Assembly: GCA_965116875.1 (NCBI GenBank)
Contig: OZ220733.1
Coordinates: forward strand, 736,001 to 800,000
Direction of reading: 5' to 3'
DNA from: Candidatus Latescibacterota bacterium
GTDB lineage: Bacteria; Latescibacterota; UBA2968; GCA-2709665
Length of the DNA: 64,000 nucleotides
In this document: in pieces, positions 25,441 through 64,000 of the stretch
How the letters are laid out: each line of letters opens with the position of its first letter
How positions within the stretch are numbered: position 1 is the first letter of the stretch
Program-made: the position numbers and the translations under genes
Notes under the pieces: model-generated
Seen by the model: the letters and a program-made list of their open reading frames with translations, nothing else
Told to the model about the DNA's origin: nothing
Databases searched by the model: none

Positions 25441-25444
25441 ACCT

Positions 25445-38084: not shown

Positions 38085-39434
38085 CTACGTACCGAACGCA
38101 TCCACAAACTTGAAAAAGTCCGCGAAATCCACGGTGCCGCTCCCGTCCAGATCGAACTTCGCGTTCGTGCTGCCGTACGCGTCGGCAAAGAGGAAGAAAT
38201 CCACGAAGTCGGTCCGGCCGTCGCCGTTGAAGTCTGTTGAGGCCGGACCCTGCACCAGCGGTGTACCGATACGGACGGCCGACCACGATCCGGGTCCCCT
38301 GTTGGTGACCGCACGCAACTGCAGGTCGTACCGGGCGCCGCCCGCCAACCCGGTCACCTCGTACGTCAGCGTGCCGGAACCGGTTGTCCGGACGTACCGC
38401 AATACAGTCCAGTTGGCTTCGGCCTTGTCCGGGGCGTCGCTGCGAATGTAGCGCACGTCGTAGCCGGTAATAATCACGGTGCCGGTTTCGATCGGAGGTT
38501 CGCGCCACGAGATGGTGAGCGAGCCGGTTCCGGCTGTGACCGAAAGGATGGCCGGCGCGTCCGTGCGGAGCGTGAGGTCATAGGCATACAGCTTCTTGTC
38601 CACGTAGTCGGCCACCCACATCGTCGTGCCGTTCGACCAGATCCCGACCGGGTGGCTGTTCCCGGCGGCATTCAGCGAATTGACGTCCCGAAAGGGGTTC
38701 CGGCCATAGTGCGTCAGATCGTACGCATAGATCTTCGCGTCGGCGTAGTCCGCCACCCACATCGTCGTGCCGTCGGACCAGATTCCCTGCGGGTGGTGGT
38801 TCCCGGCGGACCCAAGCGCACTGATTTCTCTCCCGAGATCTGCAACCTCGAGCTCCATGTCATAGGCATACAGCCTGGCGTCGGTGTAATCGGCCACCCA
38901 CATTGTCGTGTCGTTCGACCAGATACCCTCCGGGTTGTCGTTTCCGTTACGCTCCAGCCCGTTGACGTCATTGTCTGCGCTCCGGGCTCCGGTTGACATA
39001 TCGTAGGCATAGATCTTCTCTCCGAACCACGGGTCGTCTGCCACCCACATCGTCGTGCCGTTGGACCAGATGCCCTCCGGGTCGTCGTTTCCTGCGGCCG
39101 CCAGCGTATCGAAATCCTTGTTGGCTGCGCGCGCGCCGGAAGCCAGGTCATAGGCATACAGCTTCCCGTCAGCCTTGTCGGCCACCCACATTGTCGCGCC
39201 GTCCGACCAGATGCCCTCCAGGTCGTCGTTTCCCGCGGCCGCCAACCCATCGATATCCTTACCCGCGTCCCGGGCGCAGCACTCGCCACCGAAGATTTCC
39301 TGCCGCGAATGCAACTTTACCTCCTCATGGCCGCCAACCGGCACGTTGTTGCCCGTATCCGGATGGATCCACGACGCTGACGTGGCCGCCAGAAAGGAGG
39401 CGATAAACCCGATTCTGAAGATTCTGCTTCTCAT
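38085..39434 (-). CDS. GIWS-repeat propeller + FN3 + C-terminal dockerin-like domain
   Basis: Five GIWSxGTTMWVAD repeats; FN3 pattern (ISW..P, ITGYDVRY, TGL..GARYDLQLRAV); DFNGDGRTDFVDFF pair. Confidence 0.85.
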   Translation of the reverse strand: MRSRIFRIGFIASFLAATSASWIHPDTGNNVPVGGHEEVKLHSRQEIFGGECCARDAGKDIDGLAAAGNDDLEGIWSDGATMWVADKADGKLYAYDLASGARAANKDFDTLAAAGNDDPEGIWSNGTTMWVADDPWFGEKIYAYDMSTGARSADNDVNGLERNGNDNPEGIWSNDTTMWVADYTDARLYAYDMELEVADLGREISALGSAGNHHPQGIWSDGTTMWVADYADAKIYAYDLTHYGRNPFRDVNSLNAAGNSHPVGIWSNGTTMWVADYVDKKLYAYDLTLRTDAPAILSVTAGTGSLTISWREPPIETGTVIITGYDVRYIRSDAPDKAEANWTVLRYVRTTGSGTLTYEVTGLAGGARYDLQLRAVTNRGPGSWSAVRIGTPLVQGPASTDFNGDGRTDFVDFFLFADAYGSTNAKFDLDGSGTVDFADFFKFVDAFGT

Positions 39435-39578
39435 GTAATGGTGCCTCCGGGTCAACGAATGTGCAGAATACGACCACCTGAGCCGGTTCCGGTTCGTGAC
39501 TGGCGGTTGCACGACTTTCGAACGGATACGTTGGGATTCAAACCGGACAGTTCCAATCGGCGACGGCGCCAGAATCGC

Positions 39579-42578
39579 CTACGCGCCAAATGCATCGACG
39601 AATCTGAAGAAATCGGCGAAGTCGACCGTGCCGTTTCCATCCAGGTCGAATCTGGCGTCTGTGCTGCCGTACGCGTCAGCGAAGAGGAAGAAGTCCACGA
39701 AATCAGTCCGTCCGTCGCCGTTGAAATCAGTCGAGGCTTGTCCTCCGGTTACGCCACTGCCGAATATCTCCAGAGGCAGATCGGAGGACTTGACGAGGGT
39801 GTAGCCAAAATGGCCATTGGGCAGTCCCGGTAATGTGCCGATATTGACGGTAACCGCCGCGGTCGTGCCGGAGGTGCGTGCGACGGTCAGTGGCTGGCTC
39901 TCGACGCTACCCCTGGAAATCGCGACAGTCGTTGCGCCGCCGCTGATGCTGCCGTTCGCGACGGTAAGCGGCAGGACAATGTTAAAAGGAGCGCCGGCAG
40001 GGGCCACTGCCTTGAACTGCCCTTCTCCGGTTTTCTCCAGGGAAACGTTGAACGGCAGGGGATTGACTGCGTTGCCGTCCAGAGAAAGCCTGTTCAACCC
40101 GGTCAGTCCATCAAAAATGCTATCGGGCAGCGCTGTCAGCCGGTTGCCGATCATGCGCAGGTCCGAGAGTGCGGCCAGTCCTTCAAAGAGGCCCGACGGC
40201 AGCGTTGTCAACTGGTTCAGGCCGAAGCGGAGCGTTTGCAGGGACGATAGCCCGGAGAAAATGTCCTCAGGCAGGCTCGTGAGTTGGTTGCCATACAATA
40301 AAAGTTCCTCCAAACCCGCGAGCCCATCGAAGTCTCCGGATTTCAAGGACGTGATACCCTTGTCGTTGAGGTAAAGCGCCGTAATTCCATCCAGGTGAGT
40401 CGCCGTAACTTCCGCATAGTTCGAGACGTTTGGATCGTTTAGACGGACAACGCCGAGAATCGCTTCTCGCACCTGCGACGTGCGCTGGCTGACCGGAGTT
40501 ATCGAAGCGGCCCACTCGGACACATCCCAGAATTTGATCTGCCTGCTATTCGGCCTCGCATCATTGCCAATGAGCGTTCTTCCGTTTGGTGAAAACAACA
40601 GGCGCCGCACGCCACCCGGCCCACCTGAGATAGACGCCAGGAGTTCGCTCTTGGAAATGTCCCATAGTTCAATCAGACCGAAGGCCGTCACCGCGAGAAC
40701 GGTACCATCCGGCGAAAACACCGGATATGCGCGATTGTAATCGCTCATATCATTCACGGCCCCGGTCTGTGATCCTGTTGCCAGATCCCAGAGCTTGACT
40801 GCCCATGAAATAGGTGACGCGAGAAGCGTCCCATGCCTGGAAATCGCTACTGCTCCTTTTGCTCCAGTCTCGATGGTCGATATCGGGGTTTCTGTAGACA
40901 CGTTCCAGAGCCTGACGGTGCCGGTATTCGACACGGAAGCAAGCTTCCCATCGCCCATAAAGGCGACTTTGCCTATTCTTTCGGCGTGTCCTTCAAGGGT
41001 CGTGCGGGTTGCCCACGTCGCCACGCTCCACAACTTTACCGTGCGGTCGAATGATCCGGAAGCGAGCATCGAACCATCCGGCGAAAAGTCCAGAGATACG
41101 ACTTGATCCGTATGGCCTCCGAGCGTCGCGACCTCTGCTTTGCTGGTCACGTTCCACACTTTGATAGCGCCCTCCCGGGACCCTGCGGCGAGCAGCGTCC
41201 CGCCGGGAGAAAACGCTACAGCATAGATCGTGTTGGCCGAATGGCGAAAGGTGGCTATCGTCTCCCTTTTCGCAGCGTCCAACAACTCCACTCCGCTGCC
41301 GCCTATTGCAAGAAACACGCCGTCAGGAGACATCGCCAGACTGCCGATGTCATATTGATGAGGCATGTCGATTGTGGCGATATGCTGCGGCGAGTGTCCC
41401 GCCTCGAGGAAAAAGCGTATGGGACTGACAGTGCTGGTCCTGTTCCCATTGGTATCGACTGCGACAACATGTATAGGATGCTGAACCGTGTTGGAAAGCG
41501 TCGTATGCGCTTCCGCCACGGTGCCGACGTTGTCAGACGGGAGCCTGCCGTCAAAGCTGAATTCAACGACGGTATCCGTTTCGCCGGACAATCCGTCACA
41601 CGCTTTCACTTCGGGGGTGCCACCCAGAAAGGGGTTCCTGGGGCGAACGAACAGGATGACCTGGTGAAGACCATCGTCATCGCTGACTCTCAGCTGGACG
41701 GGTGTACTCACTGAACCGAACGGATACTCAGATGAAACGAGTTCAACGGTGGGCGGTGATTCGTTTTCGAGTGGTACATCGGGGTCGAAATACGGATGCG
41801 CCGCCAGAAACTCTGCGGCGCAAGCTGACAACGCGCCGGATGACCGGTCCGCGCGTCCGTACGACATGATGTACTTATCATCACGGAAGTCGTGGTGAAG
41901 GCCGAACGCATGCCCCAGTTCGTGGGCGCCGGCAAACCAGTCCCATTCGCCGTATATCATCGCCCATCCGCTGTCCTTCGTACCTGTTCCGCGTCCATGG
42001 GCGGTTCTGCTACTGACGTCCATGACAACCAGCGCGATGTTCTTCGAGTTGTCGAAGGCGCGTTTTATTTCGCCTTCCGTATATCCCCGGCTGCTATAGT
42101 GGCTGTCCGCATAGTCCCCATCGATGCGATGAACGACCGGATCGCCCTGGTCATCGGTTTCAACCTGGAAAGTCGTGTCTCCGTATCCGAGCGCCTCCAT
42201 CTGCTCGCCAAAGAACGTCTGAAGATCGAGAATCCCCGCTTTCATCGAATCCACGACTTCGGTGCGGTACGGCCGGTCGTTCGGCAGGAAATAGAAGAGA
42301 CGCACTGTGCGGGGTTCCCCCACGTTCAGGTCGGACGCCCGCTTACCGGCGGGACCCGGCTCATCGCTCTGCCAATGTTCGGGATCGAAAGGCAGGCAGA
42401 AATGCGCGCTGTCGGCAGGCACGGAAGATGCCTGGCCGTCTGACGGCGGGTGCAGAAATACAGCCAGAACTGCCAGCATTGCCATATGCGAATTCGTCTT
42501 CACGTCAGGAGCCCCCGTCTGTGACGTATGCCCCAGGGTGAATCCGCGCGCCGAAGGCGCATTTCGCCAGGCGGTCAT
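39579..42578 (-). CDS. metzincin + WD40 + LRR + dockerin-like protein
   Basis: HELGHAFGLHH...IMSY Met-turn; GH...VKLW WD40 repeats; F.GL..L..L.L..NQLT.LP LRRs; C-terminal EF-pair. Confidence 0.85.
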   Translation of the reverse strand: MTAWRNAPSARGFTLGHTSQTGAPDVKTNSHMAMLAVLAVFLHPPSDGQASSVPADSAHFCLPFDPEHWQSDEPGPAGKRASDLNVGEPRTVRLFYFLPNDRPYRTEVVDSMKAGILDLQTFFGEQMEALGYGDTTFQVETDDQGDPVVHRIDGDYADSHYSSRGYTEGEIKRAFDNSKNIALVVMDVSSRTAHGRGTGTKDSGWAMIYGEWDWFAGAHELGHAFGLHHDFRDDKYIMSYGRADRSSGALSACAAEFLAAHPYFDPDVPLENESPPTVELVSSEYPFGSVSTPVQLRVSDDDGLHQVILFVRPRNPFLGGTPEVKACDGLSGETDTVVEFSFDGRLPSDNVGTVAEAHTTLSNTVQHPIHVVAVDTNGNRTSTVSPIRFFLEAGHSPQHIATIDMPHQYDIGSLAMSPDGVFLAIGGSGVELLDAAKRETIATFRHSANTIYAVAFSPGGTLLAAGSREGAIKVWNVTSKAEVATLGGHTDQVVSLDFSPDGSMLASGSFDRTVKLWSVATWATRTTLEGHAERIGKVAFMGDGKLASVSNTGTVRLWNVSTETPISTIETGAKGAVAISRHGTLLASPISWAVKLWDLATGSQTGAVNDMSDYNRAYPVFSPDGTVLAVTAFGLIELWDISKSELLASISGGPGGVRRLLFSPNGRTLIGNDARPNSRQIKFWDVSEWAASITPVSQRTSQVREAILGVVRLNDPNVSNYAEVTATHLDGITALYLNDKGITSLKSGDFDGLAGLEELLLYGNQLTSLPEDIFSGLSSLQTLRFGLNQLTTLPSGLFEGLAALSDLRMIGNRLTALPDSIFDGLTGLNRLSLDGNAVNPLPFNVSLEKTGEGQFKAVAPAGAPFNIVLPLTVANGSISGGATTVAISRGSVESQPLTVARTSGTTAAVTVNIGTLPGLPNGHFGYTLVKSSDLPLEIFGSGVTGGQASTDFNGDGRTDFVDFFLFADAYGSTDARFDLDGNGTVDFADFFRFVDAFGA

Positions 42579-44929
42579 TCATGCCCTTTGAGGACATCGA
42601 CTATGCGCCCTTTCTCATCCACGACGTAGATCGGTCCCTCAGCGACACAATCTCCCCAGTTCATCAGATGCTCCGCGACGGGCTTCGCGCCTGCCGGGTC
42701 GGGAAGCCTGTATTCGTCGGCCTGGCCGACGTCGACTTGGTAGCCGTGGTCGGCCAGCGACTGAATCGAAATCCTGCTCAAAGGAACGGGCTCTGCGAGG
42801 TCCGTCCTGAAGGTTGCTGTCATCAGTTCGTCGCCGAACACCGATCCTCTCCAATGACTGCTATCTCTCTCTGCAGGTACCTTTGGGCCGCTGTAGTTCC
42901 GCCCTCCCGCATCGTCGAAGGCTCGAATCGCCCGTGGGCCGGTGAAATACACGTCACGTGCTCCGTGCACAAGGTCCAGTGATTCCCATACCGTCCCGAT
43001 CCCAAGCACGTGCCCCATCTCATGCAGGACTACGCCCGAAAGAAGGGTCTCAGACATCCACTCCAGGTCGTCCCTGTCGATGGCGATCACACCGATCTTC
43101 GTAACCACGGTACCCCGACTTCGATTTCTTTTGACAATGCGCGTTCCTCCTCTGCCAAGCGTGCCCCTGGCGCCGTCGATGTCCCCGATACCAACGAAGA
43201 TCCGCAGGTCATCCACAGTATCGTCGACGAATATTCGTGCATTCAGAAGATCGTCCCACCTGTCGAGCGGATTATCCGAGAAGTCGCTGTCCGAAATGTC
43301 TCCGGTAATGATGGACATCCAGCGTGCGGCAGCCTCGTGGAATAACGCCTTCTGGGACGCGTTGTATCCGTCGCCTGAAGAGCTTTCGACGAAGACGATC
43401 TCGATACGGAAGGGAGACGCCGCGACGGTAACGGCCACCGCGCTCGAGCAGTTGTTTCCGGTATCGGATTCACCCGTGACCGCATCCACACAGGCGCCGT
43501 AGTAGTATGCGCCGGCGGACGATGGCGCCGTCAAACCGATGGACTCGGCAACGGTCCCCGATGCCGCAAGCCCCTGCACCGCAACCGAACCAACTTCCGT
43601 ATCGCGCCTGGAAATCGTCGCGTTCGGCGAACGGAAATAACGCAGCGTTGTCGAGGGCGCCTGAGCATTTCCGCGGTTCCGCACGGTCACATTGAGCGTG
43701 AAGGACTCCCCGGTCGTCAAAGCGCTGCCGCTCCCGGTGGGCGCGTCGAGTACAAGGTCCGGACTTCCACCGCTGGAAGTCGGGATCACCTTGCCGAAAT
43801 TCCTCGCGAAGATCAGAAAATCTGAGAATCCGATTTGCCCGTCGCCGTCCAGATCGAAACGCGCGTCAAACCCCGCGTCGCCCTGCCGTTCGCCGAATCT
43901 CGACGCAAATCGCACAAAGTCGGAAAACCCGACAGTCCCGTCGCCGTCAAAGTCCGGAGACGCAATCGCGTTGAACGTGATCGCGTTCGCCGTCGTCAGC
44001 ACCTCTCTTGACGTGGTACTCCCGGCAAGTGTAACCGTCTCGATGCCGATGGAGAATTCCCTGCCCGTTACATCCGCAATCGTCTCGAACTCGGCGCGCG
44101 CAAGAAAGCCGGACGGCGCAGGCGTTACCGGCGTACCGGACGCGAAGTTGACGCCAACGGACCCTTCAGGAAGCATCAGCGGAAACGCGCTGTTCTCGGC
44201 TTCGACGAAGGTCAGAAGCGACGCGTCAAAGTCAAACCTGAGGATCATGCCGATCAAAGGCGTTCTCACATCGGCAGCGAAAACCTCCACCGCGATGGTT
44301 GCTCCCGATCCGTTGACAATGCCTGACGTGACGCGATCGTCGATCCGGTTGCCCGCGCCGCCGCCCGGTATGAGGTCAAGCGACAGAGCATCGCTGCCGC
44401 CGGCTCCGGAATGCCTGGCATTGAACGCAATCACATCTGTCGTCGTAAGTACGTCGCTGGACGTGGTACTCCCGGCAAGCGTAACCGTCTCGATGCCGAT
44501 GGAGAATTCCCTGCCGGTTACATCCGCAACCGTCTCGAATTCGGCGCGCGCGAGAAACCCGGATGACGTTAACGACACCGGCGTTCCGGACGCGAAGTTG
44601 GTGCCGATGGATCCTTCGGGAAGCGTCAACGGAAACGCGTTGTTTTCGGCCTTGACAAAGGACAGCACAGAAGCGTCAAAGTCAAACCTGAGGACCAGGC
44701 CGATCAGGGGCGTACTCACCCCTCTGGCGAATACCTCAATCGCGATCGTTTTCCCGTTTCCGGTAACCGTGCCTGAGACGACCCCGTCGTCGATCCGGTT
44801 GCCTGCTCCCCCGTCGGTAATCAGATCAAGTGTGAGTACCGCAGATGCATTGGGACCGGCAATGGCCTGACCGGCAAATGCAAGCGACGCAATCGCCACG
44901 AAAGCCAACAGAACCCGTCCTGGAAACAT
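42575..44929 (-). CDS. two cohesin-like + dockerin-like + CARDB + leishmanolysin-like zinc protease
   Basis: Duplicated IAVEVFA...LRFDFDAS.L.FV...FLARAEFET domain; DFDGDGTVGFSDF pair; VLHEMGHVLGIG, HWR...ELMT. Confidence 0.82.
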   Translation of the reverse strand: MFPGRVLLAFVAIASLAFAGQAIAGPNASAVLTLDLITDGGAGNRIDDGVVSGTVTGNGKTIAIEVFARGVSTPLIGLVLRFDFDASVLSFVKAENNAFPLTLPEGSIGTNFASGTPVSLTSSGFLARAEFETVADVTGREFSIGIETVTLAGSTTSSDVLTTTDVIAFNARHSGAGGSDALSLDLIPGGGAGNRIDDRVTSGIVNGSGATIAVEVFAADVRTPLIGMILRFDFDASLLTFVEAENSAFPLMLPEGSVGVNFASGTPVTPAPSGFLARAEFETIADVTGREFSIGIETVTLAGSTTSREVLTTANAITFNAIASPDFDGDGTVGFSDFVRFASRFGERQGDAGFDARFDLDGDGQIGFSDFLIFARNFGKVIPTSSGGSPDLVLDAPTGSGSALTTGESFTLNVTVRNRGNAQAPSTTLRYFRSPNATISRRDTEVGSVAVQGLAASGTVAESIGLTAPSSAGAYYYGACVDAVTGESDTGNNCSSAVAVTVAASPFRIEIVFVESSSGDGYNASQKALFHEAAARWMSIITGDISDSDFSDNPLDRWDDLLNARIFVDDTVDDLRIFVGIGDIDGARGTLGRGGTRIVKRNRSRGTVVTKIGVIAIDRDDLEWMSETLLSGVVLHEMGHVLGIGTVWESLDLVHGARDVYFTGPRAIRAFDDAGGRNYSGPKVPAERDSSHWRGSVFGDELMTATFRTDLAEPVPLSRISIQSLADHGYQVDVGQADEYRLPDPAGAKPVAEHLMNWGDCVAEGPIYVVDEKGRIVDVLKGHE

Positions 44930-45034
44930 CAGGTACACTCCCGGTCAGCTTGATGGTCGCCCGGCTGAAACCAAAGGGAATGGTTGACCCGGTACCGGAA
45001 AAAGCCACGCAGGATCAATACCACCCCATTGGTC

Positions 45035-45178: not shown

Positions 45179-46261
45179 CTACGAGCCAAACGCATCCACA
45201 AATTTGAAAAAGTCAGCGAAATCCACAACGCCGTTGCCATCCAGGTCAAAGCGTGGGTCCGTACTGCCGTACGCGTCGGCGAAGAGGAAGAAATCCACGA
45301 AGTCCGTCCGGCCATCGCCGTTGAAGTCAGTGGACGCTTCCGGTGGGGCTGCGTCCGGTTGCGGCATATTGTAGGCGTAGATTTTTTCATCCTCGTCGTC
45401 CGCGACCCACATGGTCCTTCCATCCGACCAGATACCGGTCGGCTCGTCGTTTCCGGCGGCGTCCAGCGTGTTGAAGTCCTTCGCCGGGACACGCCTTCTG
45501 GTCGTCATGTCATAGGCATACAACTTTTCGTCTGATTGGTCCGCCACCCACATCGTCGTGCCGTCCGACCAGATGCCCTCCGGATCGTCGTTTCCCGCGG
45601 CGTTCAGCCGATTGAAGTCTTTGCTCGGATCCCGTACCCTCGTGGCCAGGACGTACGCGTAAATCTTGTCGTTGTCTTCGGTAAACCACAACCCCTGCGC
45701 GTCGTCCGCCACCCACATCGTCGTGCCGTCCGACCAGATACCCTTTGGCTCGTCGTTTCCAGCGGCGTCCAGCGTATCGAAGTCCCTGGCCTCGACACGC
45801 TCCCTGGTCGTCATGTCATAGGCATACAACTTTTCGTCAGATTGGTCCGCCACCCACATCGTCGTTCCGTCCGACCAGATGCCCTCCGGATCGTCGTTTT
45901 CCGCGGCGTTCAACCGATTGAAGTCTTTGCTCGAATCCCGCGCCATCGTGGCCAGGCCGTACGCATAAATCCTGTCGTTGTTCTCCAAACCATCCACCCA
46001 CCTGTCCGCGTCGTCCGCCACCCACATCGTCGTTCCGTTCGACCAGAGACCGGTCGGCTCGTCATTTCCGACGGCGTCCAGCGCATCGAAGTCTTTGCCC
46101 GGGTTCCTGTCGCAACACGCCTCCAGGGCCATCTTCCGTAACGCGCCCACGTCGCCGTCGTTGCCACCACTACCCGCACGGGAATACACGAACGACGCGA
46201 GCATCACAACAACAGCGAGAGTCCATACGACCCATCTTCGCCGGGAAACGAAGTTCTTCAT
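45179..46261 (-). CDS. GIWS-repeat propeller + C-terminal dockerin-like domain
   Basis: Five repeats with an internal duplication of about 306 bp; paralogue of 38085..39434; AGGAGG RBS. Confidence 0.85.
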   Translation of the reverse strand: MKNFVSRRRWVVWTLAVVVMLASFVYSRAGSGGNDGDVGALRKMALEACCDRNPGKDFDALDAVGNDEPTGLWSNGTTMWVADDADRWVDGLENNDRIYAYGLATMARDSSKDFNRLNAAENDDPEGIWSDGTTMWVADQSDEKLYAYDMTTRERVEARDFDTLDAAGNDEPKGIWSDGTTMWVADDAQGLWFTEDNDKIYAYVLATRVRDPSKDFNRLNAAGNDDPEGIWSDGTTMWVADQSDEKLYAYDMTTRRRVPAKDFNTLDAAGNDEPTGIWSDGRTMWVADDEDEKIYAYNMPQPDAAPPEASTDFNGDGRTDFVDFFLFADAYGSTDPRFDLDGNGVVDFADFFKFVDAFGS

Positions 46262-55600: not shown

Positions 55601-57761
55601 CACCGCGCCGGACGTCGAAGATAGAACTCGCGTAGGAACGACCCGAAAGCGTGAGTGTCACAACGCTCCCGTTCAACGTCGCCTCCGTCAAGGACTGCGC
55701 CACTGTCGCAACAACGGTTTCCTCCAGGGCAACTACATGTACCTGGTCCGTAAGCGCGGGACCGCTGTAGTTCGCGAGTGCCCCCGCGCCCACGGTGAAT
55801 GTCAACGTGCCGTCCGCGTCGATGTCGCCGTTGAAGTCCAGTTCAACCGTCACCTTCGTGTCGCTCACACGCTGCACCCCGAAAGTGCCTACGCTCACGC
55901 CGGTAATTCCCGACACCGACACCCCGTCGCGGACGTCGAAAGTGGAACTCGCGTATCTCGCCCCGGTAAGCGTCAACGTCACCACGCTCCCGTCCAGTGT
56001 TGCCTCCGTCAATGGCGAAACCGTTGTAGCGGTAACCGATTCCATCGCCGCGGCCACTGACAGTTGTGCCGAGAGCGCGGGCCCGTTATAATTCGCGAGT
56101 GCCCCCGCGCCCACGGTGAACGTCAACGTACCGTCGCTGTCGATGTCGCCGTTGAAGTCCAGTTCAACCGTCACTTTCGTGTCGCTCACACGCTGCACCC
56201 CGAAAGTGCCTACGCTCACGCCGGTAATTCCCGACACCGACACCCCGTCGCGGACGTCGAAGGTAGAACTCGCGTATCTCGCCCCGGTAAGCGTCAACGT
56301 CACCACGCTCCCGTCCAGCGTTGCCTCCGTCAATGGCGAAACCGTTGTGGCGGTAACCGATTCCATCGCCGCGGCCACTGAAAGTTGTGCCGAGAGCGCG
56401 GGCCCGTTATAATTCGCGAGTGCCCCCGCGCCCACGGTGAACGTCAGCGTACCGTCGCTGTCGATGTCGCCGTTGAACGTCAGCTCAACCGTTACCACCG
56501 TATCACTCTTGCGCTGCACGCCGAACGTGCCCACACTCACACCCGCAATACCCGACACGGACACCGCATCTCGGACGTCGAAAATGGAACTCGTGTATTT
56601 TCCTCCGGTGAGCGTCAACGTTACCAGACTCCCGTTCAGCGTCGCTTCGGTTAACGGTGATGCCGTTGTTGCCGTCAACGTCTCCATGGCAGCACTTACC
56701 GGCAACTGCGCGGTCAGTGCGGACCCGGCGTAATTCGCGATCGCGTCCGCGCCCACCGAGAACGTCAACGTGCCGTCGCTGTCTATGTCGCCGTTGAACG
56801 TCAGCTCAACCGTTACCACCGTATCACTCTTCCGCTGCACGCCGAACGTGCCAACGCTCACACCGGCAATGCCCGATACGGACACACCGTCACGAACGTC
56901 GAAGATCGAGCTCTCATATGTGCCACCAGTCAGCGTAAGCGTCACCACGCTCCCATTCAGCGACGATTCGGTCAACGGCGACGTCGTCGTCGCCGTCACC
57001 GATTCCATCCCCGCGCTCACGGTCAACTCCGCGGTCAACGCGGCGCCGTTGTAGGACTCGATCGCGTCGGCGCCCACCGTAAACGTCAGCGTACCGTCGC
57101 TGTCGATGTCGCCGTTGAAATCCAGCTCAACCGTCACCCTGGAATCGCTCACGCGTTGCACGCCGAACGTGCCAACGCTCACACCGGCAATGCCCGATAC
57201 TGAAACGCCGTCACGAACGTCGAAGATCGAACTCTCGAAAGCTCGTCCGGAAAGCGTCAACGTCACCACGCTCCCGTCCAGCGTCGCTTCGGTCAACGGC
57301 GACACTGTCGATGCCTCCACCGTTTCTTCCACCGACGGGATAGACAAATCTCTCGTTAGCGCGGCGCCGTTGTAGGACGCGATGGCTCCCGCGCCAACCG
57401 TGAACGTGAGCGTTCCTTCTTCGTCGAAGTCTCCGTTGAAGTCCAGTTCTATCGTCAATTTGGTATCGCTTGCACGCGTTATCCCGAACGTCCCCACGCT
57501 AACGCCTGCAATCCCCGATACCGTTACCGCCCGACGGATGGAGAAGATAGACCGCTCGAAAGTACGCCCGGCAAGCGTCACGGTAACCTCGCTGCCATCC
57601 AGCGTCGCCTCGGTCAACGGACTTGACGTCGACACGGTGATCGACTCCTGAACCGCGGGAACGGGAACCTGGGCGTATCCCGAAACCGGCAGGGCGAATG
57701 CCGCCACAACGACTCCCAACGACATCAAGGCGAATCGCCAATTCTCAACTCTCCGTTTCAT
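52644..57761 (-). CDS. large secreted protein: nine 107-aa repeats + cadherin + YWTD propeller + LRR + dockerin-like
   Basis: SPLTEATL repeats; cadherin motifs (AEN, ATDGD, LTDVNE); six YWT repeats; L.G.IP.ELG LRRs; DFNGDGIVNFADFF pair. Confidence 0.88.
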   Translation of the reverse strand: MKRRVENWRFALMSLGVVVAAFALPVSGYAQVPVPAVQESITVSTSSPLTEATLDGSEVTVTLAGRTFERSIFSIRRAVTVSGIAGVSVGTFGITRASDTKLTIELDFNGDFDEEGTLTFTVGAGAIASYNGAALTRDLSIPSVEETVEASTVSPLTEATLDGSVVTLTLSGRAFESSIFDVRDGVSVSGIAGVSVGTFGVQRVSDSRVTVELDFNGDIDSDGTLTFTVGADAIESYNGAALTAELTVSAGMESVTATTTSPLTESSLNGSVVTLTLTGGTYESSIFDVRDGVSVSGIAGVSVGTFGVQRKSDTVVTVELTFNGDIDSDGTLTFSVGADAIANYAGSALTAQLPVSAAMETLTATTASPLTEATLNGSLVTLTLTGGKYTSSIFDVRDAVSVSGIAGVSVGTFGVQRKSDTVVTVELTFNGDIDSDGTLTFTVGAGALANYNGPALSAQLSVAAAMESVTATTVSPLTEATLDGSVVTLTLTGARYASSTFDVRDGVSVSGITGVSVGTFGVQRVSDTKVTVELDFNGDIDSDGTLTFTVGAGALANYNGPALSAQLSVAAAMESVTATTVSPLTEATLDGSVVTLTLTGARYASSTFDVRDGVSVSGITGVSVGTFGVQRVSDTKVTVELDFNGDIDADGTLTFTVGAGALANYSGPALTDQVHVVALEETVVATVAQSLTEATLNGSVVTLTLSGRSYASSIFDVRRGVSVSGITGVSVGTFGIQRVSDTKVTVELDFNGDIDADGTLTFTVGADAIANYSGPALIATLPVSAGMESVTASTPSPLTEATLNGSVVTLTLTGGKYASSVFDVRRGVTVSGITGVSVGTFGVQRASDTKVTVELTFSGDIDADGALTFTVTAGAIANYSGASLTAQLPVTAGMESVTATTVSPLTEATLNGSVVTLTLTGGKYASSVFDVRRGVTVSGITGVSVGTFGVQRASDTKVTVTLTFNGDIDTDGTLTFTVGAGAIANYSGASLTAQLPVTAEVGGETNQVPTFSEGASTTRSFAENTPAGQNVGGPIRATDGDGGTLSYSLEGTDAASFVLVSTSGQLQTKTGVIYDYDVKNRYEVTVRVSDGQGGSATIDVTINLTDVNEPQANPELYWTDASKDKIQRANLDGSNVEDLVTETDGLDGPVGLVLDVDGGKMYWTEWERNKIKRANLDGSNIENVVTSGRAPVWLALDVPGGKLYWTDWGTDRIQRANLDGSNVEDLVTRNLNSPGGLSLDVTNGKMYWTDSSWHKIQRANLDGSNVEDLITSGVDGPSGLALDVVHGKMYWTNLNADKIQRANLDGSNVEDLITRGLDKPYELVLDLAGAKMYWTNGGFAKIQRANLDGSNVEDLVARADGLSNPSGLALAVAPAPTPPAPQGPCATGSAVPNPAANPWLVSDCNVLLEARDPLRGTATLNWSENTAIATWDGVTISGTPQRVTNLRLWNKGLNGTIPAGLSRLTGLNALQFGYNQLTGTIPAELGSMTGLTHLVLPSNLLTGTIPAELRNLTNLRKLALQINGLTGNIPSWVGTLRRLQILNLYENQLTGAIPTELGNLTELWQLLIFGNRFTGTIPAELGNLSLLQEVRLDDNRLTGSIPSTLGGLARLGLLYLAGNSLTGCIPPALREISRHDMDKLNLPDCSQPQGQKTADFNGDGIVNFADFFDFVDAFGTTDAKYDLDDNGIVNFADFFEFVDAFGTSG
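54765..57650 (-). repeat. intragenic tandem array, 9 x 321 bp
   Basis: Shadow ORFs recur at 55795/56116/56437 (321-bp period); units 5/6 and 8/9 nearly identical. Confidence 0.9.
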
Positions 57762-57774: not shown

Positions 57775-60700
57775 CTATTCAAAGGTGCCCCTGGTGACGC
57801 GTCCGCTCTCGATGCTGCATCCGCCGGAAGAAACACAGGTATAACGGGTTCCATCCTGAAGCTCGATCAGACCGCCGTTCTGGAAGCTGAGTACGGCGCG
57901 CCCCCCACTGATTGTAAGGCTCGCATTCCGAATGAGCCTGGGCACGAAGAAGCCGGTGGGGAAGTTCGGAAGCACATCACCGACGCCGTAGGTTCCGCCG
58001 CTGCTGCTACCGCCTGAGGCGCCTATGGCCAGTCCCGACGGATCCACAAGCCCGTTGGAACTGGTGAGCAGGTCTTCGACGTTGGAGCCGTCCAGGTCCG
58101 CGCGCTGGACCTTGTCGGCATCCACGTCCGTCCAGTACATCTTGCCGCCGGACACGTCCAGGTCCAGCCCGTTCGGGCTCGTCAGGCCGCTGGTGACCAG
58201 GTCTTCCACGCTGGAACCATCCAGACCGGCGCGCTGGATCTTTTTTGTGCCGCGATCGGTCCAGTACATCTTGCTCCCGGACAGATCCAGGGCCAGGCCG
58301 GTGGGGCTGCTCAGTCCGCTGGTCACGAGGTCTTCCAGGTTGGCGCCGGTCAGGTCCGCACGCTGGATCTTGTCCGACCCGGGATTCGTCCAGTACATCT
58401 TGCCATTGGCCACGTCGAGTGCGATTTCACCAGGAAATGCCAGACCCGCCAGCGTGAGCAGGTCTTCAACGTTGGAACCGTCGAGGTCCGCGCGCTGGAT
58501 CTTGCCGTTCTGCCGGTCCGTCCAGTACATCTTGCCCCCGGACACATCGAGCGCCAGACCGTACGGCACGCTCAGGCCGCTGGTAATAAGGTCCTCGACG
58601 TTGGCGCCGTCCAGGTCGGCCCGCTGGATCTTTGCCGTACCCGCGTCCGTCCAGTACATCTTGCCACCGGCCATATCCAGGGCCAACCCGTCCGGGCCGT
58701 TGAGTCCGGCGCCGCTGACCAGATCCTCGACGTTCGAGCCGTCCAGGTCCGCGCGCTGGATCTTGTCCGTGCCCCAGTCCGTCCAGTACAGTTTCGACGT
58801 TCCCGTGGCGGGTGGCGTCGTCGCCGCAACAGTAATGCTCACCGCCGCGGAGCAGTTGTTTCCGGTATCGGATTCACCCGTTACCGCATCCACGCAGGCC
58901 CCGTAGTAGTAGGTGCCGGAATTCGATGGCGCCGTCAGGTCAATCGCCAAAGCCAGATCAATCGATCCGGGATTCCCTCCCGACGCCGCAAGGCCGTTCA
59001 CCGCGTCCGTTCCAACTTCCGTGTCGGACGTTGAGATGCTCGCGTCGACCGACATATAGTAGCGCAACGTCGTAGCCGCCGACATCTGATCGCCCTGGTT
59101 GCGAACTGACGCGCCCAGCCTGAAGGTGTCGCCGGCAGCCGGGCTGCTGTTGCTGACGAAAGGCGATACGACAACCAGGTCGGCACTGCCTCCACCCCCG
59201 CCGCCGGAACCGCCACCCCCGCCGCCAGACGCCGTCGCCAGGGCCAGACCCGACGGGTCCACCAGCCCGTTGGCTCCGGTTACCAGGTCTTCCACGTTGG
59301 AGCCGTCCAGGTTGGCGCGTTGAACCTTATTCGTGCCGGTGTCGGCCCAGTACATTTTCCCTCCGGACACGTCGAGAGCCAGGCCATTCGGTCGATTCAG
59401 GCCGCTGGTGACAAGGTCTTCGACATTGGCCCCACTGAGGTCCGACCGCTGGATCTTGTCCGAGCGCCGGTCCGTCCAGTACATCTTGCCGCCGGATATA
59501 TCAAGTGCGATCCCGGTCGGACTGTCTACGCCCCTGGTGACGAGGTCTTCGACTCCTGATCCATCCAGGTTGGACCGCTGAATCCTGTTCGCGCCCGGAT
59601 TGGTCCAGTACATCTTGCCGCCAGACACGTCCAGGGCCAGACCGCCGGGAAACGTCAGACCGCTGGTGATCAGGTCTTCCGCGTTGGCGCCGTTGAGGTC
59701 GGCACGTTGTATCTTGTTCGTCTGCCGGTTCGTCCAGTACATCTTGCCGCCAGACACGTCCAGGGCCAGACCGTACGGTATTCCCAGGCCCGTTACCAGG
59801 TCTTCCACGTTCCCGCCATTGAGATCAGCACGCTGGATCTTGTTGGCGCCCGCATCCGTCCAGTACATCTTGCCGCCTGCCATATCCAGCGCCAAACCGT
59901 CCGGCCCGTCCAGTCCGCCGCCGGAGACCAGGTCTTCCACCCCCGAGCCGTCCAGGTTGGCGCGCTGGATCTTGTCGGTTCCCCAGTCCGTCCAGTAGAG
60001 TTTGGACGCTCCAGGGGTGGGCGGTGGTGGCGCCGCAGCAACCGTCAGGGCAACGGCAGGCGAACAGTTGTTCCCCGTATTGGACTCGCCGGAAACCGCG
60101 TCGACACACGCGCCGTAGTAGTAGGTTCCCGAACTGGAAGGCGCCGTCAGGTTGATCGACTCTGCGCTGACGCCGCCGGCGGAGAGTCCGCTCACCGCGT
60201 CAGTGCCTGCTTGCGTGTCGCTGGTGTTCACTGTCGCGTCGGTCGAACGGTAGTAGCGCAAGGTCGTCGCGGCAGACGATCCGTTACCCTGGTTCCGGAC
60301 TGTCGCGCCAAGCGTAAAGGTCGCCCCGTGCGATACGCGACTGCTGCTCAGGGAGGGGGACTGAACGACCAGATCCGGGTTGCCGCTACCACCACCCCCA
60401 CCGCCCGGCGATGGCGGTGGACCTCCAAAGCTCTGCGCGAAGATCAGAAAATCCGTAAAGTCAACCGAACCATCGGAATTCAGGTCCTGTGCGGCATTGT
60501 ACCTCCCGTCGCCCTGCCGCGACCCGAACGCGCCCGCAAAAATCAGAAAGTCCGAAAATCCGACGAAATCATCGCCGTCGAAGTCTGGAGAGGGCGCCGA
60601 GTTAAACGTAACCTCACTGCTTGTCCTGAGTTCGTCGCTCGAGGTGGGACTTTCCGCGAGGGTAACCGACTCGATGCCAATGGCGAACTCCCGGCCGGTT

Positions 60701-61110
60701 ACGTCCGCAACGGTCGTAAACTCCGCACGCGCCAGAAACCCGGAAGCCGCCAGTGTGACGGGGCTTGACGCCGCCAGGTGGGTGCCGATGGAACCCTCCG
60801 GAAGCGACAGTGGGAACGCGCTGTTTTCGACCTCTTCATACGACACCAGCGAAGCGTCGAAGTCGAATTTCAGGATCATTCCGGCCAGGGACGTCCGCAC
60901 GCCGGTCGCGAATACCTCAACGGCGATGGTTGTGCCCCGACCGGAAACTGTTCCCGACGTGACCCCGTCATCCGTCCGGTTACCGGCGCCTCCACCGGGA
61001 ATCAGGTCAAGCGACAGGACGACATTGGCATTGGCGCCGGCGAAAGCCTGTCCGGAAACGACGACGACCGCGAGGGCGGCAATCAACAACAGAATCCGTT
61101 TGGGAAGCAT
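57775..61110 (-). CDS. cohesin-like + dockerin-like + (CARDB + YWTD propeller) x2
   Basis: IAVEVFATGVRTSLAGMILKFDFDASLVSY; DFDGDDFVGFSDF..DLNSDGSVDFTDF; twelve YWT/YWA repeats; AAGGAG RBS. Confidence 0.87.
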   Translation of the reverse strand: MLPKRILLLIAALAVVVVSGQAFAGANANVVLSLDLIPGGGAGNRTDDGVTSGTVSGRGTTIAVEVFATGVRTSLAGMILKFDFDASLVSYEEVENSAFPLSLPEGSIGTHLAASSPVTLAASGFLARAEFTTVADVTGREFAIGIESVTLAESPTSSDELRTSSEVTFNSAPSPDFDGDDFVGFSDFLIFAGAFGSRQGDGRYNAAQDLNSDGSVDFTDFLIFAQSFGGPPPSPGGGGGGSGNPDLVVQSPSLSSSRVSHGATFTLGATVRNQGNGSSAATTLRYYRSTDATVNTSDTQAGTDAVSGLSAGGVSAESINLTAPSSSGTYYYGACVDAVSGESNTGNNCSPAVALTVAAAPPPPTPGASKLYWTDWGTDKIQRANLDGSGVEDLVSGGGLDGPDGLALDMAGGKMYWTDAGANKIQRADLNGGNVEDLVTGLGIPYGLALDVSGGKMYWTNRQTNKIQRADLNGANAEDLITSGLTFPGGLALDVSGGKMYWTNPGANRIQRSNLDGSGVEDLVTRGVDSPTGIALDISGGKMYWTDRRSDKIQRSDLSGANVEDLVTSGLNRPNGLALDVSGGKMYWADTGTNKVQRANLDGSNVEDLVTGANGLVDPSGLALATASGGGGGGSGGGGGGSADLVVVSPFVSNSSPAAGDTFRLGASVRNQGDQMSAATTLRYYMSVDASISTSDTEVGTDAVNGLAASGGNPGSIDLALAIDLTAPSNSGTYYYGACVDAVTGESDTGNNCSAAVSITVAATTPPATGTSKLYWTDWGTDKIQRADLDGSNVEDLVSGAGLNGPDGLALDMAGGKMYWTDAGTAKIQRADLDGANVEDLITSGLSVPYGLALDVSGGKMYWTDRQNGKIQRADLDGSNVEDLLTLAGLAFPGEIALDVANGKMYWTNPGSDKIQRADLTGANLEDLVTSGLSSPTGLALDLSGSKMYWTDRGTKKIQRAGLDGSSVEDLVTSGLTSPNGLDLDVSGGKMYWTDVDADKVQRADLDGSNVEDLLTSSNGLVDPSGLAIGASGGSSSGGTYGVGDVLPNFPTGFFVPRLIRNASLTISGGRAVLSFQNGGLIELQDGTRYTCVSSGGCSIESGRVTRGTFE

Positions 61111-61256: not shown

Positions 61257-62066
61257 CTACTTCAACAACAGCATCCTCCTGGTCGCTGAGAAACTGCCCG
61301 CCTGTATCCGATACAGATAGATGCCGCTGGCCACGCGCCGGCCCAGCGCGTCCGTCCCGTCCCACGTCGCGGTAAAAGACCCGGCGTTTCTGCGTTCGTT
61401 CACCATGACGCGCACCTCCTGGCCGATCAGATTGTATATCGCCAGCCGAACCATTCCCGCCTCCGGCAACTGGTAGCCGATCGCGGTGGAGGGGTTGAAT
61501 GGGTTGGGCATATTCTGCTCCAGATTGAACCGATCCGGCAGCGGCTTCAGATCGCCGATTTCGGCGTGATGCAGCATGTCGACGGCACCATCCAGGCCCA
61601 CCAGAACGCTTTCCGATACCTGAAAGTCGGACGACAACGGCGTTGCGCTCGTCCTGAACACAAGCTCGACGAGCTTCCCGCCGCCACTGGCGCCCCGGCC
61701 GTCGATCTTCACCGCGCCAATATCCACCTGCCCCGGCGTCCGGTTCGACGAGAGGAACAGGGTCTCCTGACCGGAACCGGATTTCAGCAGGTTGCCGTCG
61801 AGTTCCGTGGCACTAACGAACTCATACTTCAAGGGATCGTATTGCAGCGAAAACCCGTATCCCTTCAGATCACTGGTCTGCGCCACCGACACGAGCATTT
61901 TCAGAACGCCACTTTCCGCGTCCGGATCGTTCACGCGCTCCAACTTGAGCGTAGCGCCGGAGTTCCGACCTCCGGTAATGGTCAGCCCGCGGGTCATGTC
62001 CCCGGCGAATACCTGGCCGATCAACACAAACGCCGCACAAACGGATGTAACGATTCGAGTCCACAT
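61257..62066 (-). CDS. cohesin-like domain + T9SS/FlgD-Ig C-terminal domain (269 aa)
   Basis: DLKGYGFSLQYDPLKYEFV...GGGKLVELVFR; LEQNMPNPFNPST..WDGTDALGRRVASGIYLYRI..RRMLLLK; AAGGAGG RBS; signal peptide. Confidence 0.85.
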   Translation of the reverse strand: MWTRIVTSVCAAFVLIGQVFAGDMTRGLTITGGRNSGATLKLERVNDPDAESGVLKMLVSVAQTSDLKGYGFSLQYDPLKYEFVSATELDGNLLKSGSGQETLFLSSNRTPGQVDIGAVKIDGRGASGGGKLVELVFRTSATPLSSDFQVSESVLVGLDGAVDMLHHAEIGDLKPLPDRFNLEQNMPNPFNPSTAIGYQLPEAGMVRLAIYNLIGQEVRVMVNERRNAGSFTATWDGTDALGRRVASGIYLYRIQAGSFSATRRMLLLK

Positions 62067-62368
62067 AACTACCTCCTTTTTGTCACCCGAACGGTGACGT
62101 GGTGAGTACTGCCGACCACGTGGCCTTGAATACCGGTTTTCCGATCCAAAGAACTCGGAATCCAGGAAACAAGCCTCTCGTCCAAAATCACGAACGTCGT
62201 TTATTGAAATCGAGCTCAATCCGGCATTCGTCAGAACAGGCACAATCTTACTCACTGACTCGCCAACGCCGGCCTGAATCCGGTATTGAGACTCCGACTT
62301 CATTTGCTCCCACCCTTGCCAGACGGGCGAGGTGTTCTGCCGAACGCCTCCTTCCGTTCCTCAATGGG

Positions 62369-64000
62369 TCAATCACCAATGATGCCGCCGGCTTCCGGCC
62401 ACCGTCCCCCGTACTTCTCCCCCACAGCGTGGTGTAGCCCCGGTTTCTTCTTGCTCACCGCTGGCTTCGACGCACCAAATGACACATCGACGCCTCTGCG
62501 CCGGAGATCCGGAATGTGCACGTTGATCGAGGTCGCATTCAGTGGGTTATTCCTCACATCCAGGAGATCACCGCTGCCCATTCCGGTATTTGCAACGAGT
62601 GGCGCGAGATCCGAAACCTGGTTGCTTTCGAGATCCAGCCACTCCAGACGAGTCAGACCCGACAACGCAGACACATTTGATATGCTGTTGCCGGCAAGCC
62701 ACAACCACTCGATGTTTCGCAAAGTCGATAGTGCAGACACATTCGATATACTGTTGTCGTCAAGATCCAGAAACTCCAGACGGGTCAGACCCGACAGGGC
62801 CGATACGTTCGATATGCTGTTGCCGGCAAGCCACAATATACTCAGTTTGGTCAATTTAGATAGTAAAGACACATCCGAGATGCTATTGTTATCAAGATCC
62901 AACACTTCCAGACGAATCAGGCCCGATAGAGCCGATACATTCGAGATGCTGTTGTCCGAAAGACCCAGTCCTGTCAGGTTGATCAGATACGAAAGCGCAG
63001 ATACACTGGAGATGCCGTTGTCGGAGAGATCCAGGATTTCCAGACGGGTCAAGTCCGACAGCGCCGAAACATCGGATATCCTATTGCCCGCAATTCCCAA
63101 CACGCTCAGGTTGGTTAAGTTTAATAAGACAGACACAAGCGCAGACGTACTGGGAAAGCTGTTGTAGCCAAGGCCCAGGGTATCCAGACGGGTCAGACCC
63201 GAGAGGGGCATGACGTTCGAAATGCTGTTTTCGGAGAGATCCAGGAATTCCAGGCGGGTCAAACCCGACAAGGGCACAACGTTCGAAATGCGGTTGTCTG
63301 AAAGATCCAGCCGCTTCAGGTTCACAGCAGCTTCCAGCCCGGTCAGATCGCCGATCGACTTCGAGTATGCCTCAAGGCGAGTCAGGGTAGCCATCTCCGC
63401 CGGAGTGACCGGCGCACCCCGTGGCTTCCCTAGACTGTCGGTAATAATGGTACGCAGGGTTACGTCCGGAACGGAAACTTCATTTGGGCCATCACCGCCC
63501 GGCGTTCCATTGACCGAAAGGGTATTCTCACTGACGTACTTGCCCCTTACTCCGTTGATCGTGATTTCCGCTGCCAATCTGTATTCACCCGGGCTGGAGG
63601 GTGAATAGGAACACAGACCGGCGCGCTCCGTACCCGAAACGTCGACCCATGTCTGTCCATCCTTGCGCTGCCACTTGGACGTATGAGTCGTGTAAACGAC
63701 ACCGTTGACATTAGCGTTGTTCCAATGGATACATCTTCCAACCGATATGAAGCCAAACTGGACCCGACCGTCGGATACTCGAAGACCTGCCAGAGGCTTA
63801 TAATCCGCGGCGGGCGTCGTTGGACCACCCTCACCAGAGGTCGGAACCTGACTGCCGAATGCGCCCGCAAAGATCAGAAAATCCGAGAAGGCAACGGACC
63901 CATCGCCGTCCAGATCGAACCGCGGATCATACCGCGCATCGCCCCGGCTGGACCCGAAACTGCCCGCGAATGCAAGGAAGTCGGGAAACCCTACCGTCCC
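62369..64000 (-). CDS. dockerin-like + unknown beta domain + internalin-type LRR protein (5' end outside window)
   Basis: Frame is open from 64000 (GTVGFPDFLAFAGSFG..DLDGDGSVAFSDF) into ORF 62369..63577; 22-aa LRRs. Confidence 0.88.
   Translation of the reverse strand, partial: GTVGFPDFLAFAGSFGSSRGDARYDPRFDLDGDGSVAFSDFLIFAGAFGSQVPTSGEGGPTTPAADYKPLAGLRVSDGRVQFGFISVGRCIHWNNANVNGVVYTTHTSKWQRKDGQTWVDVSGTERAGLCSYSPSSPGEYRLAAEITINGVRGKYVSENTLSVNGTPGGDGPNEVSVPDVTLRTIITDSLGKPRGAPVTPAEMATLTRLEAYSKSIGDLTGLEAAVNLKRLDLSDNRISNVVPLSGLTRLEFLDLSENSISNVMPLSGLTRLDTLGLGYNSFPSTSALVSVLLNLTNLSVLGIAGNRISDVSALSDLTRLEILDLSDNGISSVSALSYLINLTGLGLSDNSISNVSALSGLIRLEVLDLDNNSISDVSLLSKLTKLSILWLAGNSISNVSALSGLTRLEFLDLDDNSISNVSALSTLRNIEWLWLAGNSISNVSALSGLTRLEWLDLESNQVSDLAPLVANTGMGSGDLLDVRNNPLNATSINVHIPDLRRRGVDVSFGASKPAVSKKKPGLHHAVGEKYGGRWPEAGGIIGD

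Follow-up and report, generated by a model that had tools for sequence, protein, structure and literature searches.

The use of cohesin and dockerin modules outside cellulosomes is established, and proteins carrying both modules are known from Archaeoglobus. Here, we describe a comparable arrangement in a Candidatus Latescibacterota bacterium (assembly GCA_965116875.1), encoded in a stretch of 64,000 nucleotides (nt; contig OZ220733.1, positions 736,001–800,000) which is referred to below as the window and numbered from its first nucleotide. A minus-strand block of the window (38085–64000) holds thirteen sizeable open reading frames (ORFs), among which we found predicted cohesin modules of two kinds (CohI and CohII), dockerin-like tags of two classes (A and B, or DocA and DocB) and a sorting domain of the type IX secretion system (T9SS). 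The most economical reading of the locus, and in our judgement a moderately probable one, is a hierarchical, T9SS-anchored cohesin–dockerin display system not centred on carbohydrate-active proteins.

With clostridial cellulosomes the window shares the cohesin beta-sandwich (predicted here), a dockerin made of a duplicated calcium loop and helix, proteins combining cohesin with dockerin as possible adaptors, and a dedicated anchoring cohesin protein. Unlike those systems, it has no glycoside hydrolase (GH) or carbohydrate-binding module (CBM) cargo, at most two cohesins per protein and a diderm host; its anchor bears a T9SS sorting domain rather than an S-layer homology domain or sortase signal, its CohI modules are missed by the Pfam Cohesin model, and cohesin is fused to dockerin with almost no linker. 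The glycosidase and toxin complexes of Clostridium perfringens and the pairs of Archaeoglobus fulgidus resemble the window in operating apart from cellulose degradation, and the best fold matches of the window modules include the C. perfringens cohesin-like modules 2jh2, 2vo8 and 2w1n and the A. fulgidus cohesin 2xdh; nevertheless, these pairs differ from the window in phylum, cell envelope and cargo, and we know of neither a T9SS link nor a fused CohI–DocB cassette in either system. A cellulosome-like complex combining a scaffoldin that bears a T9SS C-terminal sorting domain (CTD) with dockerin-tagged peptidases has been inferred in silico for Ca. Stygibacter (Cloacimonadota; PMC8542988). Ca. 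Stygibacter is, like the present organism, a bacterium of the FCB group, its peptidases carry dockerins and the complex is an in silico inference only, but it relies on a single 3,755-amino acid (aa) scaffoldin with tandem cohesins and CBM2/CBM3, and its cargo comprises GH18, GH57 and peptidases. By contrast, the window encodes a 269-aa single-cohesin anchor, CohI–DocB adaptors, two dockerin classes and a cargo in which eukaryote-like repeats predominate.

The proposed outer-membrane anchor is g14 (61257..62066, minus strand), which consists of a signal peptide, the CohII module (ORF residues 98–262; 61518..62012) and a T9SS type-A sorting domain (61260..61508). The ORF encodes 348 aa (61257–62303), the most likely start being M80, which yields 269 aa; of its 244 homologues at E ≤ 1e-3, the best 120 are 61–93% identical to it and mostly exactly 269 aa long. 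Where these 120 carry an NCBI name, it is ‘T9SS type A sorting domain-containing protein’; a precomputed PF00963 match is present in some of the orthologues listed. The sorting domain, which is key to the anchoring and was absent from the initial annotation, scored 29.9 bits against TIGR04183 (Por_Secre_tail; cut-off 23) and 36.6 bits against Pfam FlgD_ig (gathering score 27). A PorV-like T9SS component is encoded in the same window (21066..22277, plus strand; Pfam PorV 60.3 bits, gathering score 27), which shows that the secretion machinery required by g14 is encoded in this genome; a second protein with its own sorting domain, T9SS-dependent and M6-like, lies at 22342–25440. Thus, g14 has both hallmarks of T9SS type-A cargo, a CTD above the cut-off and T9SS components encoded alongside. 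The host of the system is a bacterium of Latescibacterota lineage equipped with a T9SS.

The initial annotation had recognized four cohesin-like domains in three genes, and all four are borne out by structure prediction with AlphaFold2 (AF2) and Foldseek. Besides CohII, these are the CohI modules of g3 (42575..44938, minus strand), at residues 26–176 (44411..44863) and 177–326 (43961..44410), and of g13 (57775..61110, minus strand), at residues 22–173 (60592..61047). The three CohI modules are mutually 66–73% identical, those of g3 being 66% and 67% identical to the g13 module and scoring 285 and 286 bits, respectively, with a local CohI hidden Markov model (HMM). The AF2 model of g13 residues 22–233, covering CohI and DocB and built from 44 sequences, reached a mean predicted local distance difference test score (pLDDT) of 95.0 and a predicted template modelling score (pTM) of 0.87. 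When g13 CohI was compared with the PDB by Foldseek, cohesins made up 36 of 40 listed rows (probability 1.00, E from 8e-7 to 2e-4), the target-normalized template modelling (TM) score being 0.45–0.66 for single-module entries; the four remaining rows comprised one lipoprotein of a conjugative transposon, one pilin and two entries for integrins. For CohII, 34 of the 38 listed rows were cohesins or cohesin-like, with E down to 7e-8, including type II cohesins and C. perfringens 2jh2 (target-normalized TM 0.69). All four modules are thus predicted to have the cohesin beta-sandwich fold. None of them reached the gathering score of Pfam Cohesin, for which isolated CohII came closest (21.9 against 24.1 bits), phmmer of CohII against PDB sequences returned chance matches only, and an Atlas search with CohI produced only a weak pointer to cohesins, at rank 6 (score 0.90, PF00963 on 18% of cluster members).

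Searching 1.84 billion (1.84e9) representative proteins with a CohI profile recovered a family of 196 members at E ≤ 1e-3, including 131 at E ≤ 1e-10; architectures were assigned with local HMMs of five modules on 150 listed representatives. Of these, 106 are at least 250 aa long; CohI occurs together with DocB in 86 of them (71 as simple CohI–DocB and 6 as CohI–CohI–DocB) and together with a T9SS CTD in 7. CohI and the tag are nearly contiguous, the median CohI-to-tag gap being 4 residues and 65 of 96 gaps not exceeding 10. In a Pfam survey of 140 family members, Dockerin_1 ranked first (57 members at E ≤ 0.01, best 1.4e-11), followed by CARDB, LRR, YWTD and WD40; FlgD_ig and Por_Secre_tail appeared six times each among 70 more distant members. 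Across the 150 listed representatives and 68 related loci (see below), no protein had more than three CohI modules, and none was a CBM-bearing multi-cohesin scaffoldin; the maximum in the window is two.

The second component is a duplicated EF-hand-like tag, which the first annotation had assigned to nine ORFs of the block, one of them a remnant, and to two outlying ones. This assignment stands: the expression [DN].[DN].[DN]G.{2,3}[FV].[DG]F..[FV], applied in six frames, matched the window 16 times, always within these eleven ORFs (g1–g6, g12, g13 and g15 in the block; 9720–11291, minus strand, and 30135–31832, plus strand, outside it), and never matched in 50 mononucleotide shuffles. Each repeat consists of a 12-residue calcium loop, in which positions 1, 3 and 5 are Asp or Asn and position 12 is Asp, followed by a helix. 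The tag is not of one kind, as had been assumed, since alignment separates two classes with different positions and gene-order partners. Class A (55 aa) occupies the extreme C-terminus of g1, g2, g4 and g5 and ends in FVDAFG-stop; g12 bears a variant, A′, and g6 a remnant of one repeat. Class B (63 aa), with a longer linker between the repeats and a helix of the form GFSDFLIFA..FG, occurs on g3, g13, g15 and the two outlying ORFs; of the 79 DocB-only proteins in the set of listed class-B relatives, 49 have the tag at the C-terminus and 28 at the N-terminus.

Comparison with library models, a check proposed at the outset, gave a divided answer: Dockerin_1 recognized 2 of the 11 isolated tags, the Cohesin model recognized no module, and EF-hand models matched as well. 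The two tags above the Dockerin_1 gathering score of 22.9 bits are both of class B (g3, 43781..43969, 23.6 bits; g13, 60412..60600, 27.0 bits); seven others scored 13.2–19.7 bits, and the truncated g15 tag and the g6 remnant obtained no score, g6 also lacking an EF-hand match in Pfam. The structural prediction is more discriminating. In the AF2 model, the g13 tag, which is fused directly to CohI, contains only two helices by DSSP, each starting at loop position 10 and none preceding a loop, with the loop–helix units at model residues 164–173 and 197–206. This topology is that of the dockerin ‘F-hand’ pair as modelled, not of a four-helix EF-hand pair: two loop–helix segments of ~22 residues lack an entering helix, and position 12 is Asp rather than the Glu of canonical EF-hands in all full copies, with the g6 remnant and the truncated g15 copy being incomplete. 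NCBIfam treats a C-terminal dockerin-like tag as an anchor on unrelated secreted proteins (NF041540, ‘GC-type dockerin domain-anchored protein’; NF041539, choice-of-anchor R), but the class-A tags of the window score below the NF041540 cut-off (21.6–26.7 against 29 bits) and that entry names no cohesin partner.

The proteins that carry these tags are built largely from repeats. Above Pfam gathering scores, we found Ldl_recept_b/YWTD on g12, g13 and the 9720 ORF, LRR on g2, g12 and g15 (and LRR_1 and LRR_4 on the g6 remnant), WD40 on g2, fn3 on g1 (39 bits), Glug on g5 (75.7 bits) and CARDB on g3, g13 and the 9720 ORF. The cargo list of the initial annotation is therefore retained except for cadherin, whose match on g12 fell short (26.0 against 28.8 bits). 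Its three HExxH zinc proteases fared less well: there are three HExxH proteins, but a peptidase gathering score was reached only by g2 (Reprolysin_5, 28.5 against 27). The C-terminus of g3 scored 18.9 against 21 with Peptidase_M8, although it is homologous to a protein (P0352) with a precomputed PF01457 (Peptidase_M8) match, and the 30135 ORF shows only an HEFQH motif and a 17-bit NCBIfam HExxH match.

In gene order, g15 (62369..64000, minus strand) runs off the window and joins a class-B dockerin (63842–64000) to an internalin-like LRR; a full-length protein of this type (P0400, 628 aa) has a signal peptide, DocB and LRR, and no CohI. Downstream of g14, g13 comprises a signal peptide, CohI, DocB and two successive CARDB–YWTD propeller units and would be an adaptor that also bears cargo. 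The minus-strand gene g12 (52644..57761) encodes ~ten ~100-aa repeats together with the weak cadherin match; a YWTD propeller, plant-type LRR and, at the C-terminus, a class-A′ dockerin (52647–52817) complete the protein. Its repeats (residues ~30–1000; 54700–57674) are near-identical, follow the pattern ..SPLTEATLDGSVVTLTLTG..GVSVSGI.GVSVGTFGVQR.SDT.VTVEL.FNGDID.DGTLTF.V.. and have no significant Pfam family. The remnant g6 (48963..49433) retains an LRR–DocA layout with a degenerate first tag repeat only (49029–49166; local class-A HMM, one repeat, 34 bits), and its C-terminal stretch resembles, by eye, the end of g12. Next, g5 (46313..48988) combines an N-terminal choice-of-anchor R domain (NF041539, 53 bits, cut-off 30), GLUG repeats and a class-A dockerin (46316–46480), and g4 (45179..46306) has six 45-aa ‘GIWSDGTTMWVAD’ repeats before its class-A dockerin (45182–45346). 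The adaptor candidate g3 has the order signal peptide–CohI–CohI–DocB–CARDB followed by a leishmanolysin-like HEMGH domain, whereas g2 (39579..42578) carries an M12/reprolysin-like HELGHAFGLHH domain, a WD40 propeller, LRR and a class-A dockerin (39582–39746), and g1 (38085..39512) carries 45-aa repeats, FN3 and a class-A dockerin (38088–38252). All of these genes lie on the minus strand. Of the outlying genes, 9720..11291 (minus strand) encodes a signal peptide, DocB (10950–11138), CARDB and a YWTD propeller, and 30135..31832 (plus strand) the HEFQH protein with a C-terminal DocB (31641–31829). The 45-aa repeats shared by g1 (38553–39365) and g4 (45347–46174), about six in number, follow the pattern ..AAGNDxPxGIWSDGTTMWVAD..K(I/L)YAYD..; their sole Pfam match is a short, implausible one to the NACHT helical domain NCH3. 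They probably represent an undescribed propeller-like repeat; among the listed relatives, no class-A cargo is commoner than this repeat combined with FN3.

As had been stated before, no GH or CBM family was recognized: none was present on 17 ORFs of the window, including the 11 tagged ones (Pfam, E ≤ 0.01; for g2, the best 25 of 53 families), and the window contains no dockerin-bearing carbohydrate-active enzymes (CAZymes) with a CBM-bearing multi-cohesin scaffoldin, the combination that defines a cellulosome. The counts for tag-bearing relatives refer to 120 listed class-A proteins (206–657 aa) and 120 listed class-B proteins, whose precomputed families include FN3, LRR, WD40, GLUG, Big_1, M8, M14 and Reprolysin for class A, and CARDB, LRR, WD40, YWTD, Big_1, Metallopep/Reprolysin, M60-like and S8 for class B. 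A Pfam census of proteins of at least 250 aa in the related loci covered 53 of 56 class-A and all 42 class-B proteins, with the proviso that ~24 redundant WD40 models fill the top 25, so that rare families such as CAZymes could be masked.

The arrangement of these genes is conserved. A scan of species-representative genomes yielded 68 related loci, selected through CohI and often several per chromosome, with 76 CohI–DocB, 8 CohI–CohI–DocB, 65 DocA-only, 49 DocB-only and 25 CohII–CTD genes. By record title, 53 of these loci belong to Candidatus Latescibacterota/Latescibacteria, in line with the link to Latescibacteria drawn from the beginning, 10 to Gemmatimonadota, 4 to ‘uncultured bacterium’ and 1, a 2-kb contig, to Halieaceae. 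Near-identical orthologues are filed as Gemmatimonadota or as Latescibacterota/Latescibacteria depending on the submitter, and the phylum label for this lineage is inconsistent in public records. Two gene orders recur. In the first, a DocB protein, CohII–CTD, a CohI–DocB protein and a DocA protein follow one another, as in g15–g14–g13–g12 of the window: a CohII–CTD gene lies less than 600 nt upstream of a CohI–DocB gene in 22 of 25 cases, a DocB-only gene stands just upstream of eight CohII–CTD genes, and a DocA gene follows 16 CohI–DocB genes. In the second, a CohI–CohI–DocB gene is flanked by DocA genes, as in g5–g4–g3–g2–g1; among the seven such genes examined, DocA was downstream in seven and upstream in six. 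Variants were also observed, namely two CohII–CTD genes within 23 kb (locus L014), a partial CohII joined to a class-A tag in an ORF of 180 aa (L025) and a 1533-aa DocB–CohII–CTD protein adjoining a CohI–CTD protein (L057), which indicates that the modules have been shuffled in several ways among relatives.

Taken together, the predicted fold, the tag topology and the conserved gene order suggest that the modules assemble proteins at the cell surface through cohesin–dockerin contacts, which we regard as somewhat probable. In such a system, g14 would be exported by the T9SS and fixed to the outer membrane via its sorting domain; the class-B dockerin proteins (g15, the two outlying ORFs, and g3 and g13 as adaptors) would plug into it in a calcium-dependent manner; the adaptors would offer one or two CohI cohesins; and these would capture proteins ending in a class-A dockerin (g1, g2, g4, g5 and g12). 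Together, these parts would form a layered array at the cell surface, made of LRR, WD40, YWTD, CARDB, FN3 and GLUG modules with M12/M8-like zinc proteases and serving adhesion and proteolysis; from the type of cargo, a role towards a host is conceivable. The specific pairing of class A with CohI and of class B with CohII, suggested by gene order, is possible rather than probable. A complex prediction for g13 CohI (residues 1–152) with the g12 class-A′ tag, run with no controls, scored 0.02 against a mark of 0.32 and counts neither way. The CohI modules followed by A′ tags are syntenic orthologues, so that the A and A′ subtype labels are not independent.

Several observations weigh against this reading. 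The surface location of the array and cohesin–dockerin binding itself are inferred. CohI matched nothing in Pfam at E ≤ 10 (isolated modules), phmmer against PDB sequences gave nothing relevant beyond chance matches, PF00963 was not among the top 25 families of the 140 CohI family members, and hhalign of the CohI profile with the g14 module returned a probability of 0.1, that is, no sequence link between the two cohesin kinds. The g14 model is moderately confident (pLDDT 64 overall, ~70–92 in the core). EF-hand models score the isolated tags similarly to or above Dockerin_1 and a tag profile retrieves mainly calmodulins from PDB sequences, so that sequence alone does not separate dockerin from EF-hand. 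The pTM of 0.87 suggests a fixed cis arrangement of CohI and DocB, in which the pair could be unavailable for binding in trans. Selection of the loci through CohI biases the counts of adjacency to it upward. Finally, the cargo proteins of the window have signal-peptide-like N-termini, by eye, but no T9SS domain, which leaves their crossing of the outer membrane unexplained.

In a rival explanation, the tags are stand-alone, calcium-dependent anchoring or folding modules that would attach cargo to a non-cohesin receptor, such as a surface glycan, lipopolysaccharide or another protein, the cohesin-fold modules then being Ig-like spacers or binders of other ligands. The equal match of the tags to EF-hand and dockerin models, the lack of sequence similarity between CohI and any cohesin, the NCBIfam treatment of a related tag as an anchor and the choice-of-anchor domain at the N-terminus of g5 all fit this explanation, but it would leave aside the predicted cohesin fold of both module kinds, the fusion of CohI to DocB in most of the long family members listed and the tight, repeated interleaving of tag genes with cohesin genes across genomes, and we consider it unlikely. 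Somewhat less likely again is that CohI and DocB act in cis, DocB packing onto its own CohI as a rigid N-terminal stalk, or head-to-tail, CohI of one molecule taking up DocB of the next and so forming fibres or lattices, with no A/B hierarchy. Such behaviour would suit the very short gap between the modules, the pTM of the two-module construct and the presence among the fold matches of cohesin 2xdh from Archaeoglobus, where proteins with both modules also occur. It would not explain why there is a separate class-A tag family with a conserved placement around CohI genes, nor the conserved CohII–CTD gene immediately upstream of CohI–DocB, and a contact of DocB with the binding face of CohI is conjectural.

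The CTD-less cargo raises a further possibility. None of the tagged cargo ORFs of the window has a T9SS CTD in a local HMM scan, and none of the 120 listed class-B relatives was seen to carry a CTD family, whereas the class-A tag is followed by a T9SS CTD in 41 of 120 listed relatives and is terminal in 64 of 120 (local HMM). As many relatives keep the CTD behind the tag, the class-A tag is not itself the T9SS signal. Class-A tags with a CTD were observed in P0332–P0363 and others, for example, a g1-like protein with the order repeat–FN3–DocA–CTD; the window copies stop at the tag, which suggests that the CTD was gained or lost within the lineage. The cohesin–dockerin pair might accordingly be a piggy-back adaptor for T9SS export, CTD-less tagged proteins being loaded in the calcium-rich periplasm onto the CohII–CTD carrier, either directly or via CohI–DocB, and the folded complexes passing the T9SS translocon to end tethered to the outer membrane. 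This would explain the contrast between the CTD-less window cargo and the relatives with a CTD of their own, as well as why the carrier g14 is short, highly conserved and multi-copy and why the CohII–CTD gene heads the cargo cassettes; we nevertheless deem it improbable. An ordinary polysaccharide-degrading cellulosome with enzymes outside the window, as might be imagined from the rare relatives in which GH5 stands behind a class-A-like tag or a class-B tag accompanies GH12 (3 of 120 listed in each case) and from the ‘Cellulosome-affiliated enzymes’ attributed to Latescibacteria (Farag 2017, as cited in PMC7081726), is highly improbable given that none of the 11 tagged window ORFs has a GH or CBM, that the cargo lists family-wide are dominated by repeats, Ig-like domains and peptidases, and that the 150 listed representatives and 68 loci show no CBM-bearing multi-cohesin scaffoldin, with at most three CohI per protein.

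Other neighbourhoods of the window deserve mention. Between two cohesin–dockerin cassettes lies a group of lipoprotein genes (49798–52490, minus strand), in which four tandem paralogues (49798–51920) encode small lipoproteins of 141–200 aa with a lipobox-like Cys and shared ..QTRAFD...FF..L.KS.FL.. motifs. They belong to no Pfam or NCBIfam family, and the Atlas places them nearest to clusters of unnamed hypothetical proteins, DUF3568 emerging as a lead (0.88–0.92); a weak BamE/OsmE-like lipoprotein follows (51981–52490, minus strand). Upstream of the cohesin–dockerin block, a second secreted-protease neighbourhood (21066–28564, plus strand) starts with the PorV-like gene. This is followed by the gene for the T9SS-dependent, M6-like metalloprotease, termed ‘inactivated’, which combines FG-GAP repeats with a CTD, and then by one for a TolB/PD40 propeller protein of 1039 aa whose HExxH region weakly resembles Peptidase_MA/flagellinolysin. 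At the window start, the region 1432–6853 has a lower GC fraction (0.54–0.57 against ~0.60–0.62) and encodes a ParA-like ATPase, a member of the endonuclease/exonuclease/phosphatase family and, with a score of 259 bits, a protein of the Nmad3 type (nucleotide modification associated domain 3). This region could represent an islet of mobile or defence type.

Eukaryote-like repeats are abundant in sponge-associated Latescibacterota and, in the form of LRR, WD40, YWTD/NHL, FN3 and cadherin-like domains, are a standard genomic signature of animal-associated symbionts, as set out in the accessible portions of PMC8163846 and PMC12993501, which do not address how such repeats are presented at the surface. 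The words cohesin and dockerin are absent from these two articles and from PMC7081726, and a literature search, thin on subscription journals, found no description of cohesin with dockerin in Latescibacteria, nor of dockerin with eukaryotic-like repeats, Gemmatimonadota or Poribacteria. Given PMC8542988, the idea is less new than the initial annotation implied, a T9SS-CTD scaffoldin with dockerin peptidases having already been proposed for Cloacimonadota. What is new here is the unmodelled CohI family, the cassette in which CohI is fused to DocB, the proposed wiring of two tag classes to a minimal T9SS anchor, and the connection of such a system with eukaryote-like repeats as cargo. If the proposed reading is correct, current domain libraries miss a cohesin family, cohesin–dockerin assembly would be tied to type IX secretion, and new orthogonal cohesin–dockerin pairs would become available for protein engineering. 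For the bacteria themselves, it would provide an organizing principle for the eukaryote-like repertoire, namely modular, exchangeable display on a Gram-negative outer membrane.

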